This document shows positions 6,901-12,962 of a stretch of DNA of 64,000 bases, piece by piece. The notes beneath the pieces were generated by a model. The model was given only the letters and a program-made list of their open reading frames with translations. It ran no database searches and was not told the DNA's origin. Origin of the DNA: Bacteriovoracaceae bacterium (GTDB taxonomy: Bacteria > Bdellovibrionota > Bacteriovoracia > Bacteriovoracales > Bacteriovoracaceae); assembly GCA_048270185.1 (NCBI GenBank), contig JBLWTJ010000001.1, forward strand, positions 96,001-160,000, written 5' to 3'. Position numbers and translations under genes: made by a program. Positions within the stretch are counted from its first letter, which is position 1; every line of letters starts with the position of its first letter.

Positions 6901-7470
6901 TTAGTAGATCTTTGATAAGTCCATTGTGTACTTACCTGGAGAGTATTCGGCAAATCTCTTGGCGCGAATATCTTTGTATAGCTTCTTTGAGTTTGAACTT
7001 GAAGCGTATGGGTAAATGCAAATTCCACCACGAGGTGTGAATTCGCCAATAACTTCGACATATTTTGGCTTCATTAGCTTTGTTAAGTCATCACAGATTT
7101 TTTGTACGCAATCTTCATGGAAGTCACCGTGATTTCTGAAGCTAAATAAATAAAGCTTTAATGACTTTGACTCGACCATCTTCTTATCAGCAATATAATT
7201 AATATAAATACGAGCAAAGTCAGGTTGTCCTGTCTTAGGGCATAGGGAAGTGAACTCTGTGCAAACAAATGTTGTCCAAGCATCACTATTTGGATTCTTA
7301 TTGTCAAAAGCTTCTAGGACTTCTGGCGCGTATGTATCTGGGTAATCAGTATTGGCCGAACCAAGGGCGAATGCAGTTAGCTCTTTTGTGTCGCGGCCTT
7401 TATTGGACTTAGTAGTCTTTGCTGATTTTGTTGTTTTTGCTTTCTTGATAGCTTTTTTCGATGATGACAT
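6901..7470 (-). CDS. queF: NADPH-dependent preQ0 reductase
   Basis: EFTSLCPKTGQPDFA, VESKSLKLYL, FHE, PRGG; Lys-rich N-terminal extension. Confidence 0.95.
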   Translation of the reverse strand: MSSSKKAIKKAKTTKSAKTTKSNKGRDTKELTAFALGSANTDYPDTYAPEVLEAFDNKNPNSDAWTTFVCTEFTSLCPKTGQPDFARIYINYIADKKMVESKSLKLYLFSFRNHGDFHEDCVQKICDDLTKLMKPKYVEVIGEFTPRGGICIYPYASSSNSKKLYKDIRAKRFAEYSPGKYTMDLSKIY

Positions 7471-7535: not shown

Positions 7536-9968
7536 ATGGCAATGCGTCACGATCATTTAACATTCCCTGCGGGTAAGAAAGATGGCCACAAAGTAACAAA
7601 AGTAGTTTTGGTTCAACTTGGTTCTCCGAAATCTCCAGCAGTTAAAGATGTTAGAACATACTTAAAAGAATTCTTAGGCGATCCAAGAGTCGTCGATATC
7701 AATCCTCTCTTATGGAAGATTATTTTAAACCTCTTTGTCATTCCATTTAGGCCAAAGAGATCTGCTGCACTCTATAGTCGAATTTGGGAGGGGAGTGAAT
7801 TTCCTCTAACTCGTATTACAAGAGAGTTTACACTTAAGGTAAATGAATTAACTCCTGATCATATCGAAGTTGAACACGCCTTTTTACTATGTGAACCACG
7901 TGTTGCTGATGTCTATGCAAAGTGGGAGAAGGAGCTAGAAGAAAGACTTGAGCCAGCTCAAAAACTAATCGTCATCCCAATGTTTCCTCAGTACTCAGAG
8001 TCGACAATTGCAAGTGGTATTGACTTCTTTGGGAAACTTCTTGAGACTAAAGTTCGAATTCCAAATTTTGAAGTCATTACAAACTTTCATCGCCTTCAAT
8101 CTTTCATTGATAACTCAGTACGTATTATTAATGAGAAGATTGCGACTGAAGAAATTGATGAATTAGTCATCTCTTTTCATGGTATCCCAAAGAGGCGAGT
8201 GATTTATAAGAAAGACCCATACTATCAGCACTGCTTTGAAACTTTTCAATTCATCCTTGCTGGTATCAAGGGAATCACTTCAGATAAAGTTCATATGACT
8301 TTCCAGTCACGTTTTGGAAGTGAAGAATGGCTAACTCCATACACTGATGAATTTACTGTCAACCTCGCTAAAGATGGAGCAAAGAATATTGCGGTTTATT
8401 GTCCGGCCTTTGTTGCTGATTGCCTCGAGACAATTGATGAAATTGGAACTGAACTACAAGAAGAAGTTGAGGAGTATGGAACTAAGATACATGCAATCCC
8501 TTGCTTAAATGATGATGAGCAGTGGGCCAGTGGATTTGCAAATTATGTCGAGACTCTTTGTGATAACCCAAAAGAAGTTGAAAAAATTGAATACGAATTA
8601 CCAAAGGAAAAATACATGGATATGCCAAAGCAGACGATGGAGTCTGAACCTCTAAGTGATAATGCAAAGAAGTCACTAAAAATAGTCTTTCTAACTCTCT
8701 TTCTCGACTTAGTTGGATTCTCGATTATTTTCCCTTTATTTCCATCATTAGCTAAGTACTACTTAACTGTTGATGCTGATAATATTTTCTTAAAGGCAAT
8801 CTTTGGATCAATTGATACCTTAACGAGTGCAGGTGGCGCAGGAAGTTTCTCGGCCATCGTTCTCTTTGGTGGTGCGCTTGGTGCTCTTTATTCTTTATTA
8901 CAATTTATTGCTGCACCAATTTGGGGAACCATCTCAGATCGTATTGGACGTAAACCAGTTCTTTTAATTTCTGTTTTCGGACTCTTTATTAGTTATGTTA
9001 TGTGGGCCGTTGCTGGAAATTTCACAATCCTTATTCTTGCTCGCTTTATTGGCGGAATTATGGGGGGCAATATTTCAACAGCAACTGCAGTTGTAGCAGA
9101 TGTCACAACAAATAAGAACCGTTCAAAAGGGATGGCGACAATTGGTATTGCCTTTGCTCTTGGTTTCATTATTGGTCCAGCAATGGGGGGGATCTTATCT
9201 CTCTTTGATTTAACAAAGATGTATCCATCTCTTGCCTCAATTGGAATTAACCCATTCTCAATGGCCGCGATCGTAGCAGGGCTACTTTCTCTTTTTAACT
9301 TATATAATCTTTATAAGAAGTTTGATGAAACACTTCCTCCTGAAAAGCGTGGTCAGCACGAAACAGAAAGAAGTGCTAACCCTCTTAAGTTATTTAAGCC
9401 TCTGCCATATAAAGGCGTAAACTTAACTAATTTCGGTTACTTTTTATTTCTACTAGCATTTAGTGGCATGGAGTTTACGTTAACATTCCTTGCGGCCGAA
9501 AGACTTAATTATTCTTCGATGGATAATGCTTATATGTTTATCTTTATCGGTCTTGTTCTTGCTCTTGTACAAGGTGGCTACGTTAGAAGAAAAGCGCATA
9601 CAGTAGGTGAGAAGCGCATGGCCTTACAAGGTCTTGTGACGATTATTCCTGGACTTATTTTAATTGGAATGGCCTCTTCTTCATGGCTTGTTTATGCAGG
9701 ACTATTCTTCTTAGCAATCGGATCATCTCTTGTTATTCCATGTCTGACTTCACTTGTGTCGATGTACTCACCGGCACAAAGCCAAGGTCATGTGATTGGT
9801 GTTTTTAGATCTCTCGGTGCACTGGCCAGAGTATTTGGGCCAATTGTCGCTTCTCTTGTTTACTGGCGATACAACTCGGCAGCTCCTTATTACTTAGGGA
9901 GTGTCTTTTTAATAATACCAATTTTAATGATTGCGAGACTACCAAAGCCTCAAGAAATTAAAGGATAG
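7536..9968 (+). CDS. hemH: Ferrochelatase (HemH) fused to a TetA/DHA1-like MFS transporter
   Basis: N-terminal LGSP, EFLGDPRV, PQYSEST, SFHGIP, FQSRFG..WLTPYT, DCLETIDEI; C-terminal 12 hydrophobic segments with GTISDRIGRK (motif A) and GFIIGPAMGG (motif C); no stop between the domains. Confidence 0.9.
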   Translation: MAMRHDHLTFPAGKKDGHKVTKVVLVQLGSPKSPAVKDVRTYLKEFLGDPRVVDINPLLWKIILNLFVIPFRPKRSAALYSRIWEGSEFPLTRITREFTLKVNELTPDHIEVEHAFLLCEPRVADVYAKWEKELEERLEPAQKLIVIPMFPQYSESTIASGIDFFGKLLETKVRIPNFEVITNFHRLQSFIDNSVRIINEKIATEEIDELVISFHGIPKRRVIYKKDPYYQHCFETFQFILAGIKGITSDKVHMTFQSRFGSEEWLTPYTDEFTVNLAKDGAKNIAVYCPAFVADCLETIDEIGTELQEEVEEYGTKIHAIPCLNDDEQWASGFANYVETLCDNPKEVEKIEYELPKEKYMDMPKQTMESEPLSDNAKKSLKIVFLTLFLDLVGFSIIFPLFPSLAKYYLTVDADNIFLKAIFGSIDTLTSAGGAGSFSAIVLFGGALGALYSLLQFIAAPIWGTISDRIGRKPVLLISVFGLFISYVMWAVAGNFTILILARFIGGIMGGNISTATAVVADVTTNKNRSKGMATIGIAFALGFIIGPAMGGILSLFDLTKMYPSLASIGINPFSMAAIVAGLLSLFNLYNLYKKFDETLPPEKRGQHETERSANPLKLFKPLPYKGVNLTNFGYFLFLLAFSGMEFTLTFLAAERLNYSSMDNAYMFIFIGLVLALVQGGYVRRKAHTVGEKRMALQGLVTIIPGLILIGMASSSWLVYAGLFFLAIGSSLVIPCLTSLVSMYSPAQSQGHVIGVFRSLGALARVFGPIVASLVYWRYNSAAPYYLGSVFLIIPILMIARLPKPQEIKG

Positions 9969-10017
9969 GTCTGCTCCGGCTCCTGCCTCTCGCAGACATA
10001 CCGTACATCCTGTACAT

Positions 10018-10047
10018 AAAAAAAGCCTAGCATTAGCTAGGCTTTTT
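10018..10047. terminator. Bidirectional intrinsic terminator
   Basis: AAAAAGCCTAGC-ATTA-GCTAGGCTTTTT. Confidence 0.88.
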
Positions 10048-10052
10048 ATTTT

Positions 10053-10535
10053 TTAGTGTCCAGTTTTCATTTCGATTTGTGACTGCATGTAATTCTCAAC
10101 ACCAATTTTTTCAATCAGTGCTAGTTGAGTTTCTAGCCAGTCAACATGTTCTTCTTCTGAGTCTAGGATTTTAGAAAGAAGGTCACGTGAAACATAGTCT
10201 TGTTTCTTCTCACATAATTCAATGGCCTCTTTTAGAAGAGGTACAGTTTCAGCTTCTGTTTCAAGATCGGCTTCAATGATCTCTTTTACATTTTGGCCGA
10301 TTCTAATTCTTTCAAGTTTTTGAAGATTTGGCAGCCCTTCAAGAAATAAGATTCTCTTGATGACTTCATCGGCAAATTTCATCTCATCGATACTTGCTTT
10401 GTATTCTAAATGGCCAATCTTATCTAGTCCCCAATCTTCAAGCATACGAGCGTGAAGGAAGTATTGGTTAATGGCCGTTAATTCTTTTGTTAGTACTCCG
10501 TTAAGAGCTTTGATTACGTCTTGATCACCTTTCAT
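10053..10535 (-). CDS. bfr: Bacterioferritin
   Basis: MKGD..ELTAINQYFLHARM..SIDEMK..ILFLEGLPNL..EEEHVDWLE. Confidence 0.97.
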   Translation of the reverse strand: MKGDQDVIKALNGVLTKELTAINQYFLHARMLEDWGLDKIGHLEYKASIDEMKFADEVIKRILFLEGLPNLQKLERIRIGQNVKEIIEADLETEAETVPLLKEAIELCEKKQDYVSRDLLSKILDSEEEHVDWLETQLALIEKIGVENYMQSQIEMKTGH

Positions 10536-10601
10536 GATTAATCCCTTTCATATTTATTTTATGAGTTAATGCTATAGAAGAATGGCGTGTGTTTCAAGGA
10601 C

Positions 10602-10814
10602 TTATTTTTTTGGTAGGGTTAAGTTTTTACTTTTAACTTCGTTCTTTTGAGATTGATTTTTTTTAGAAAGACCTGCTGAGACTTGTTCGATAAGACAAAC
10701 ACCGCATGAATTACCAACACCAAGTTTATTCATAACTTCTTTTTCTGTCTGACCCTGCTTAATTGCATTGTCTAACATATCTTGTGTGATGGCATTACAT
10801 ATACATACGTACAT
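10602..10814 (-). CDS. bfd: Bacterioferritin-associated ferredoxin
   Basis: MYVCICN...CGVC; upstream of bfr. Confidence 0.93.
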   Translation of the reverse strand: MYVCICNAITQDMLDNAIKQGQTEKEVMNKLGVGNSCGVCLIEQVSAGLSKKNQSQKNEVKSKNLTLPKK

Positions 10815-10910: not shown

Positions 10911-11765
10911 TCAAGTGTTTAGATATTTTAACATTTCCTTAATTAAAAGATCTGCCAGGCCTTGTTCTCCGATTAATAAGTCAGTATAGGCCATACCTGC
11001 GGAGCTATTGGCCTCGAGAAATTTAAATTGGCCATCTAATCCTTCAAGAATATCCACGGTGATAAAGTGAAAGTCTAGGCTCGATTCAATGGCCTGTGTA
11101 ATGTTCATCACTTCTTTAGGAGTATCATTAACTGCGAAGTTCTTTGTTAGCGAGTTTTTAAAGTTTAAGATTTGAAAATCGGCCTCTGTATGCTTTGGAC
11201 TTTTTCTTATGATGATCTTTTGAGTTTTACCAATACAGATAACACGCCACTCATAGCGCATTTCAAAATAGGGCTGAATTATATAATTGAGATCTGCGCT
11301 TTCGATGATTTGTCTTCGATCAGTGGCCAAGTCAGTACTGGTGCGTACTCCATATCCCTTTTGTCCACGGATCGTTTTGATAATCCACTTCTGTGACTTT
11401 GTTAAAAATTGTCCATTATCGATTAATTCTTTTGTTTCAATCATCTTCTCAGATCCAAGAATATCCTTGAAATAACGATATTGAACGAGTTTATCTCTTA
11501 ATATTCTTGAACAGCTAACTGAGTTTACTATTGGAGCCTTGCAATCCTTACTTAGCACATCCAAGTCTTCATCATTGTAATTAAGTCCTGTGTTACGATT
11601 GATAACGAAGAGGCACTCGTTAAGTATATGTCGATTATTCTCTAGCTCATCAGTTCTTAAAATGATTGGTCTTAGTCCATTATCTTTAATGGCATTTACT
11701 AGGGCCTTCGTGGCGTAGAGTTCTGGGTTATTGCTAATGATGAGAATAGTTTTTGTGGATTGCAT
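10911..11765 (-). CDS. RimK-like ATP-grasp ligase
   Basis: DKL, IIKT..GQKGYGV, IIQPY, VDI..FLEANSS. Confidence 0.75.
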   Translation of the reverse strand: MQSTKTILIISNNPELYATKALVNAIKDNGLRPIILRTDELENNRHILNECLFVINRNTGLNYNDEDLDVLSKDCKAPIVNSVSCSRILRDKLVQYRYFKDILGSEKMIETKELIDNGQFLTKSQKWIIKTIRGQKGYGVRTSTDLATDRRQIIESADLNYIIQPYFEMRYEWRVICIGKTQKIIIRKSPKHTEADFQILNFKNSLTKNFAVNDTPKEVMNITQAIESSLDFHFITVDILEGLDGQFKFLEANSSAGMAYTDLLIGEQGLADLLIKEMLKYLNT

Positions 11766-11852
11766 AATTAATGAGATCTCTATAAAATATTGATATTATA
11801 TCTATTTTGTATGATATTATAACTTGTTATTAATATAGCCAAATTGGTAGCT

Positions 11853-12962
11853 ATGGAATCAAATTTTAAATATAAATTAATTATATCATCTCTATTCTTA
11901 CTTCTTACTGCTTGTAGCGGAGTTGAAGTTATACAATCAAATCAAAAACCAGAAGTAGCTCGTAAAGAAGTAAAGCATCCAACGACACACAAAGTTGCTG
12001 AGCATGCCGAAGATATTTCATCTAACTTCACTGACCATTCTCATAAGAATGACTTTGTAAAAGAGTCTAATTCAAAGAGAATCAACGCTTTCTGTGGTGA
12101 TATCGATAAGAGTTTTAAAAAATATGGCTGGGGTGAGTCACATTGTGAGTCCTATAAATGGATTCATGTAAGAGATACTCATCAAGGCCGTCCTATTATG
12201 TGGACAGTTTTCGGAGATGAATCTGAGCACAAAGTAGAACCAAAGAATATGACTCTTATCTTCTGTGGTGTACACGGAGACGAGATTACACCGATTAAAT
12301 TCTGTTTTGATATTCTTCATCATCTCTACCATGAAGTGAATACTATCGAAGGCAAGAAGAAGTTTAAGAATAACTTAGTGGCCGTGGCACCTATTGTATC
12401 GCCAGATTCATTCTTTAAGAAAAGGCCAACAAGAACAAACTCTCGCGGCATCGATCCAAATCGTAACTTTCCAACAGCAGATTGGGATAAGAACGCTCTA
12501 AGGCTTTGGAAGAGCCGCTATCGTTCTGCAAAGAGACGTTTTCCTGGATATAAGGCAAACTCTGAACAAGAGACAGTTTTTCAAGTTAATATCATTGCCC
12601 GCTATAATCCAGATAAGATTATCACGGTTCACGCGCCACTGACGATTCTTGATTATGATGGGCCCGTTGTTTCAAATCATATCCATGAAGAAGATGGACT
12701 GGCACTTAAGGCCGAAGAACTTCTCAATACGATGAGTAAGAAGGCCAATGGTTATAAAGTTAAGAATTACCCATTCTTCCCTGGAAGTCTTGGTAACTAT
12801 GCCGGTAACGAAAGAAAGATTCCAACTTATACGCTTGAGCTTCCTTCAAGTGATAATCGCAACCACAAAAAGTATTGGAAGATGTTTAGAGAATCAATTG
12901 ATTTTGCCCTCTTTCATGCTCCAATGACTCGTAGTGAAGTGACGGCCAATAAGATTGATTAG
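11853..12962 (+). CDS. M14 zinc carboxypeptidase (MpaA-like), lipoprotein
   Basis: Lipobox LTAC; GVHGDE, RTN..DPNRNFP, HAP, GSLG, TLEL; start moved to ATG 11853. Confidence 0.85.
   Translation: MESNFKYKLIISSLFLLLTACSGVEVIQSNQKPEVARKEVKHPTTHKVAEHAEDISSNFTDHSHKNDFVKESNSKRINAFCGDIDKSFKKYGWGESHCESYKWIHVRDTHQGRPIMWTVFGDESEHKVEPKNMTLIFCGVHGDEITPIKFCFDILHHLYHEVNTIEGKKKFKNNLVAVAPIVSPDSFFKKRPTRTNSRGIDPNRNFPTADWDKNALRLWKSRYRSAKRRFPGYKANSEQETVFQVNIIARYNPDKIITVHAPLTILDYDGPVVSNHIHEEDGLALKAEELLNTMSKKANGYKVKNYPFFPGSLGNYAGNERKIPTYTLELPSSDNRNHKKYWKMFRESIDFALFHAPMTRSEVTANKID

Follow-up and report, generated by a model that had tools for sequence, protein, structure and literature searches.

In a 64,000-nt stretch of a contig from a Bacteriovoracaceae bacterium, a marine predatory bacterium (this stretch is hereafter called the window), we have found a conserved gene that fuses a ferrochelatase (HemH) to a complete carrier of the major facilitator superfamily (MFS); both this architecture and the assignment of the enzyme are near certain. 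As an earlier note on this DNA had claimed, the gene (7536-9968, forward strand) is one uninterrupted frame of 810 amino acids (aa) with a full ferrochelatase, placed by the note at about aa 18-340 and matched here by PF00762 at aa 23-339 (E 2.5e-80; 270 bits vs a cut-off of 27; profile positions 4-314 of 317). The whole protein also passes the NCBIfam equivalog TIGR00109 (hemH; 213 bits vs 124.6), and MFS_1 (PF07690) covers aa 384-769 along its entire profile (E 2.6e-50; 172 bits vs 33.4; positions 1-347 of 347). Every motif named in advance is present in the translation: SFHGIP (213-218) and CLETIDE (296-302) in the enzyme, motif A GTISDRIGRK (464-473) and the antiporter motif C GFIIGPAMGG (543-552) in the carrier. 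The predicted linker is also there, but the gap between the two Pfam matches measures about 44 aa, not about 35. In the AF2 model (pLDDT 84.7, pTM 0.67) both domains are folded confidently and the linker has a pLDDT of 79-91. Residues H215 and E298 of the enzyme and D391, G464, D468, R472, G543, G547, P548 and G551 of the carrier are invariant in all 36 aligned fusions (42-90% identity). Judged from these sequence features, the gene product is predicted to be a bifunctional inner-membrane protein that combines a catalytically equipped protoporphyrin ferrochelatase (PpfC) with an autonomous DHA1-type carrier.

The join is widespread in the family. A hand count over a table of 150 other family genomes, with matches at E <= 1e-40, finds the fusion whole and in a single frame in about 101 of them, and cut by contig ends or with stops (G144) in 12; 13 genomes have the MFS only, seven have a distant stand-alone HemH alone, one is ambiguous (G102) and 16 have nothing at this threshold. 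Six further rows of the table have one stop 'inside' the match, which in G028, when checked, turned out to be the gene's ordinary stop codon, where the alignment ends. Among 60 related genomes, the whole single-frame fusion is present in 25 of the 36 that belong to the same family and is cut by a contig end in four more, and hemH lies directly before the MFS in 48 of the 80 loci recovered with an MFS profile. The best 120 of 1359 matches in a collection of 5.8 billion proteins all carry both Pfam families (783-824 aa, 62-100% identity); the source names among these 120 are just 'ferrochelatase' of Halobacteriovorax or Bacteriovorax species, including H. marinus SJ. About ten representative clusters of a 50%-identity protein library span both halves at 43-67% identity, and distant fusions are kept down to 42% identity. 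The earlier note had allowed that relatives might encode two genes, with a stop or an indel at the junction, and had named a scan for conservation of the fusion (Ferrochelatase plus MFS_1) and read support at the junction as checks. The scan speaks for a genuine join through the hundred or so whole fusions just described, and so do contigs built from two public sequencing runs, which come from two studies and one of which may be the source of this DNA itself: these contigs cross 8202-9000 free of indels and differ by one substitution at most. Moreover, 69 non-identical fusion loci from independent assemblies encode both HemH and the MFS in a single frame that no stop interrupts. The sole exception among loci with both matches is L048 (4759-7311, in a metagenome-assembled genome of the Bacteriovoracaceae), where a single in-frame linker stop is followed 9 nt later by an ATG, leaving open reading frames (ORFs) for a 402-aa HemH and a 444-aa MFS; a recent split of the gene or an error in sequencing would explain this stop.

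The fusion is the sole PF00762 match in its genome (3.35 Mb, 95.9% complete). HemB, HemE, HemJ and HemF were found in this genome, and ChdC (PF06778) was not found at that completeness; the presence of HemJ and HemF together with the failure to find ChdC indicates that the pathway is protoporphyrin-dependent and that the fused domain is a PpfC. Consistently, the enzyme half matches human PpfC in the PDB more strongly than it matches CpfC. In the alignment with human FECH, H215 and E298 fall in the columns of the catalytic His and Glu (H263 and E343 in the human numbering), and the AF2 enzyme half adopts the two-lobe fold of class II chelatases, with a Foldseek TMt of 0.76-0.79 to human FECH. 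The domain resembles human FECH (e.g. 2QD3, 1HRK) in its fold, in its catalytic His and Glu and in the hydrophobic lip helix conserved near the N-terminus (aa 57-82); it differs in having a Cys at the column of human H341 and in being covalently joined to a 12-helix carrier. Unlike [2Fe-2S] ferrochelatases, the window protein has no C-terminal Cys cluster motif, as read from its sequence. We therefore regard the fused domain as a predicted protoporphyrin ferrochelatase, and both halves look functional. The pattern of losses described below is in line with a working enzyme, since the HemH domain is gone solely where the haem pathway was not found (7/7) or where another hemH exists (5/5). Two further observations concern ferrochelatase architecture. 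Distant fusion clusters (P0122, alignment columns 401-425) have a Cys-rich linker, QPCCAAKVHCKTCP, at the place where some ferrochelatases hold their [2Fe-2S] ligands, whereas the window protein does not; and the 784-aa metagenomic protein P0266 is another type of fusion, in which a flavin amine-oxidase (HemY-like) domain at the N-terminus precedes a ferrochelatase domain.

The carrier half had been described as a complete '12-TM TetA/DHA1-like MFS' (TM, transmembrane helix). A complete 12-helix DHA1 carrier it is, the AF2 model placing 12 long helices in the stretch from aa 375 to 800, besides short ones in loops, but the likeness to TetA holds at superfamily level only. Tet(A/B/C/D) (NF012174) is the top NCBIfam transporter match, yet its score of 171 bits is far under the family cut-off of 475; the carrier half is thus not a tetracycline pump, and what it has in common with Tet(A)-class tetracycline/H+ antiporters is the superfamily and its motifs. 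Motif A lies in the loop between TM2 and TM3 and the antiporter motif C in TM5, and motif C, as part of the DHA1 signature, is typical of exporting H+ antiporters. D391 (TM1) and the residues of both motifs, invariant in the fusions, are also largely invariant in stand-alone orthologues. The best solved relative is human MFSD10/TETRAN (6S4M, E 8e-69), followed by NorA (3e-17), and MFSD10 is also first in Foldseek (TMt 0.84, 35% identity); the 15 PDB sequence matches at E <= 1e-5 include no solved metal carrier. The two proteins have the 12-helix DHA1 design and motifs A and C in common, while MFSD10 is stand-alone and eukaryotic. In the part of the source available to us, MFSD10 is an atypical solute carrier of the DHA1 family (TCDB 2.A.1.2), linked to resistance to non-steroidal anti-inflammatory drugs and with no established natural substrate (PMC8154325); among the matches listed, literature titles likewise report no natural substrate for it.

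How the two halves may act together can be proposed tentatively. Quite possibly, though we would not put it more strongly, the enzyme passes a tetrapyrrole, in the form of an amphipathic dianion, on to an efflux carrier within one bifunctional protein. The N-terminus of a 12-helix MFS would be cytoplasmic, so that the linker of about 30-45 residues would keep the enzyme close to the carrier on the cytoplasmic side. Newly made haem would be the cargo, or else protoporphyrin IX for which iron is too short to allow metallation, and the carrier would move this tetrapyrrole out of the cytoplasmic leaflet with protons in exchange; in haem-auxotrophic relatives, the carrier alone might clear surplus prey-derived haem or porphyrin. 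A tetrapyrrole cargo and an outward direction are not near certain in the way that the architecture is. We offer a haem or porphyrin cargo as a hypothesis only, because relatives without haem synthesis have kept the transporter alone. Should MFSD10-type carriers be tetrapyrrole transporters, which we consider doubtful, the fusion would amount to a minimal 'haem metabolon' in one polypeptide, passing product or unmetallated substrate to the carrier. MFS carriers with a comparable proposed role do exist: in the accessible parts of the respective sources, HatT of C. difficile is a haem efflux pump that lowers intracellular haem under a TetR-type haem sensor (PMC6303022), and FLVCR1b is a mitochondrial haem exporter (PMC12381273). 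The likeness to these two MFS carriers is one of proposed function only; neither is joined to a ferrochelatase, and no TetR-type haem-sensor gene adjoins the fusion gene.

Two results speak for such a hand-over from enzyme to carrier, namely the family-wide fusion and a coupled hemH-MFS operon in another family of the order. In the latter (G037; 0.9 Mb, 96% complete), a 330-aa hemH overlaps a 393-aa MFS gene by 4 nt (L035, G037:C2, 3252-6177). This MFS is MFSD10-like, with a match to 6S4M at E 3e-25 and an hhalign probability of 100% against the profile of the orthologues. The two genes being separate and translationally coupled, the hemH-MFS linkage there does not rest on a fusion. Just upstream of this pair, a 261-aa ORF has a GGGVLGSS dinucleotide-binding motif and no Pfam match; its product may be a flavoprotein that acts in the last haem steps and has escaped recognition.

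Other results weigh against the hand-over. Our data provide neither a tetrapyrrole substrate nor a transport direction, and the linker is variable in length and moderately conserved across the 36 aligned fusions. One set of such observations comes from losses of the HemH domain within the family. The search for HemB gave no match in 19 of 151 family genomes, 11 of which are at least 90% complete; none of these 11 has the fusion, whereas seven have the MFS only (G024, G073, G076, G084, G100, G150, G164), three have neither half and one has HemH alone (G093). Three fusion-bearing genomes also gave no HemB match, but they are merely 74-84% complete. In the MFS-only, HemB-less genomes, PF00762 was not found in any of the seven tested and HemE was not found in either of the two tested. 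The MFS-only genes nevertheless remain intact (ORFs of 434-482 aa) and occupy the same site, beside queF and tatA, so that 7/11 near-complete genomes without the haem pathway have retained the carrier at the same locus; the carrier thus has a function of its own, independent of endogenous haem synthesis. Apparent haem auxotrophy extends over several genera (HemB was not found in the seven MFS-only genomes above or in G033, and HemH was not found in the seven of these eight tested for it, all but G150). Lineages that own another hemH have also dropped the fused domain: the five MFS-only genomes with HemB (four of genus g10, plus G127) each hold a separate, divergent hemH, which in G108, G137 and G155 of g10, and likewise in G021, lies about 9-10 kb from hemB on one contig. 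The tether is therefore dispensable in g10 and G127. A quick maximum-likelihood tree of 87 MFS domains (SH-aLRT support only; built without duplicates, two partial rows and 26 loci from other phyla) has six changes between fusion and MFS-only within the family, with fused basal branches and the stand-alone orthologue outgroup outside. Its starred branches force five changes when all groups including the outgroup are counted, the exact number being unsure owing to long branches; the HemH domain has thus been lost at least five times with the MFS intact at the same locus. Finally, loss of the pathway has mostly left the carrier as constrained as before. Relative to QueF, 5/7 MFS-only orthologues from pathway-less genomes are no more diverged than the fusions, and only those of G033 and G100 fall 3.5-4 standard deviations below the QueF-calibrated line of 58 fusions; with these two alone unusually diverged, a general relaxation of the MFS after pathway loss was rejected.

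The contexts of the carrier outside the order point the same way. Stand-alone orthologues of 49-56% identity make up 31 of the 80 loci and come from four other phyla (Hydrogenedentota, 3; Nitrospirota-labelled bins, 2; Planctomycetota, 11; Verrucomicrobiota, 15). No hemH was found within 6 kb of any of these 31, and hemB follows the MFS in two of them (119 neighbouring ORFs scanned). Their recurrent neighbours are instead lipid or CoA-type genes. In 10/15 Verrucomicrobiota loci (within L096-L117), a gene for a 160-aa cytidylyltransferase-like protein is directly upstream, and in five of these ten a CDP-alcohol phosphatidyltransferase gene is also found upstream; in three Planctomycetota loci, the neighbours are S1-domain and AlgH-like genes. 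Acyltransferase genes adjoin some further stand-alone MFSD10-like carriers elsewhere (L114 is among the loci noted), and in a Trichinella record (P0267) an MFSD10-like MFS is joined to GPAT3. The lipid-type neighbours and the GPAT3 join hint at a lipid-related role for the MFSD10-like family.

The same observations feed an alternative that is possible, even if we lean away from it: the two halves may be co-localised without having a cargo in common, an ancestral hemH-MFS operon having lost its stop codon and the resulting fusion being tolerated or mildly useful. Since a ferrochelatase works at the membrane anyway, its attachment to a carrier would do little harm, and the MFS substrate could be unrelated to haem, for instance an amphipathic organic anion or a lipid-related compound. 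This would account for an MFS that stands alone in four other phyla, hemH being nearby in 0/31, and in 13 of the 150 family genomes; for at least five to six independent losses of the HemH domain with the MFS retained; for a carrier mostly unchanged in constraint once the haem pathway is lost; for a variable linker; and for lipid or CoA-type neighbours elsewhere. The operon form in G037 and the linker stop of L048 with its ATG 9 nt on also fit this reading. However, the fusion has been retained in about 100 sampled genomes and down to 42% identity, and the coupled operon has been kept in another family. A neutral fusion would also be expected to break more often without the loss of either half, and L048 is the sole candidate for such a break.

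It is improbable, in our view, that the carrier works in the opposite direction, bringing prey-derived haem or porphyrin inward so that the fused enzyme metallates the protoporphyrin or receives the haem. The case for import comes from the pathway-less relatives. Haem-copper oxidase subunit I is encoded in all five MFS-only pathway-less genomes tested, and because the oxidase is kept while the haem pathway was not found, these bacteria need external haem and must import it. A HemS/ChuS-type protein was not found in any of ten genomes tested, eight of them pathway-less. An isolated case in G093 also fits porphyrin salvage: at the syntenic site beside queF (L136, G093:C80, 3001-4547), this genome has a HemH alone (40-43% identity), and neither HemB nor the MFS orthologue was found in it at 96% completeness; this lone HemH may reflect protoporphyrin salvage. 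Nevertheless, the carrier bears motif C and the DHA1/MFSD10 signature, which are typical of exporting H+ antiporters. Moreover, if finished haem is imported, the fused ferrochelatase has no role, and three of the 11 near-complete pathway-less genomes are without such an MFS.

The genes that surround the fusion (Table 1) bear on a further proposal, that the MFS, in concert with bfd-bfr, brings iron to the ferrochelatase or takes it away, much as mitoferrin serves the ferrochelatase of mitochondria. The earlier note had stressed the convergence on bfd-bfr across one shared terminator, and the arrangement in the window is as it described, a single hairpin (10020-10047) lying between both stop codons. 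The pair begins 85 nt downstream in the window's genus, and bfr was found within 4 kb in 13/50 other loci. Its wider distribution is limited: bfr lies at most 200 nt downstream in 9/77 loci with enough sequence, all nine from the window's genus, and 0.6-3.7 kb away in 13 of the 50 loci that have at least 4 kb of downstream sequence. This genus-limited tight pairing makes it a local arrangement and not a conserved system, and since bfr is convergent in every locus, it is not co-transcribed with the fusion gene. A loose thematic link through the haem and iron content of bacterioferritin is possible but unproven. Control by Fur was not detected in a scan of the window with an E. coli-type Fur-box consensus: sites near the locus match at most 12-13 of 19 positions, all lie inside coding sequence and do not rise above the background of this AT-rich DNA; the window maximum is 14/19, at seven sites. 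A sigma-70 scan of the window gave 11 sites vs a shuffle mean of 16.1. Given that the MFS is MFSD10/DHA1-like, with no solved metal carrier among its 15 PDB sequence matches at E <= 1e-5, that bfd-bfr is convergent and not conserved beside the fusion gene outside the genus, and that neither promoter has a conspicuous Fur box of the E. coli type nearby, a role in iron supply is very improbable. An assembly or frameshift artefact joining two genes, for which the linker stop of L048 is the one possible sign, can be dismissed with near certainty, since it is ruled out by the shared single frame of the 69 independently assembled loci and by the indel-free junction contigs from two runs of two studies.

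Table 1. Features at and around the fusion gene, with positions in the window
Feature	Position	Strand	Basis
hemH-MFS fusion gene	7536..9968	+	single ORF, 810 aa plus stop; full-length relatives in family
Ferrochelatase (protoporphyrin-type HemH/PpfC) domain, aa 23-339	7602..8552	+	PF00762, TIGR00109
Linker, aa 340-383, including conserved pre-TM1 segment (PLS..AK.SLK)	8553..8684	+	between Pfam matches
MFS carrier, 12 helices, DHA1/MFSD10 (TETRAN)-like, aa 384-810	8685..9965	+	PF07690, 6S4M, Foldseek
queF, divergent upstream neighbour	6901..7470	-	PF14489, E 4.9e-34
Bidirectional intrinsic-terminator-like hairpin	10020..10047		12-bp stem, A-run before, T-run after, between convergent stops
bfr, bacterioferritin, convergent	10053..10535	-	TIGR00754, 231 bits vs cut-off 125.6
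bfd, bacterioferritin-associated ferredoxin	10602..10814	-	Fer2_BFD PF04324, 36 bits vs cut-off 26

The best-conserved neighbour of the fusion gene is queF (71/81 family loci), and a small TatA-like ORF, identified by eye, is also divergent upstream. Beyond bfd lies a divergent pair, found repeatedly in the vicinity of the fusion gene throughout the family: a RimK-like ATP-grasp gene (10911-11765, minus strand), recognised by a weak NCBIfam match only and by no Pfam family, and an M14 zinc carboxypeptidase gene (11844-12962, plus strand). The two products may be a peptide ligase and a trimming enzyme.

As far as the accessible text of a ferrochelatase survey goes, these enzymes range from 270 to 683 aa and HemH-ChdC of C. 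acnes is the sole fusion (PMC8529089); a haem-biosynthesis review of 2026, in the part available, likewise mentions C. acnes CpfC-ChdC (HemH-HemQ) as the sole fusion and recounts that it once revealed the role of the partner (PMC13564367). The protein described here is comparable in being a natural fusion of a ferrochelatase to a functionally adjacent partner, but in C. acnes the partner is the enzyme that follows in the coproporphyrin pathway, not a membrane carrier. No HemH-MFS fusion, and no literature linking Halobacteriovorax with ferrochelatase, was found in a search whose coverage excludes subscription journals. The earlier note's remark that no characterised HemH-MFS fusion is known therefore agrees with this literature and with the ferrochelatase and haem reviews, to the extent of their available text. 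Its larger claim, of a 'coupled haem synthesis and transport system', stands in part: the fusion is real, conserved and the sole ferrochelatase of its genome, whereas our results include no movement of haem or porphyrin by the MFS, and the bfd-bfr connection is confined to the level of the genus. What is new is the series of domain losses, the operon form, the contexts outside the phylum and the limits of the bfd-bfr link. The fusion is a real, uncharacterised variant built from known parts, and it is a lead rather than a demonstrated transport system.

These findings call for a correction of annotation, as the public name 'ferrochelatase' alone hides the transporter half. They also make both the exit of haem from ferrochelatase and the natural substrate of MFSD10 experimentally approachable, since the fusion is conserved in a group with named isolates (Halobacteriovorax marinus SJ). 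The repeated natural deletions of the HemH domain limit the possible answers on the function of the carrier. Since the carrier does not depend on haem made by the cell itself, a model of its function also has to account for what it does in haem-auxotrophic predators. If MFSD10-type proteins did prove to be tetrapyrrole carriers, this would provide a first physiological cargo for the orphan human MFSD10/TETRAN and a tractable bacterial model for haem leaving ferrochelatase.

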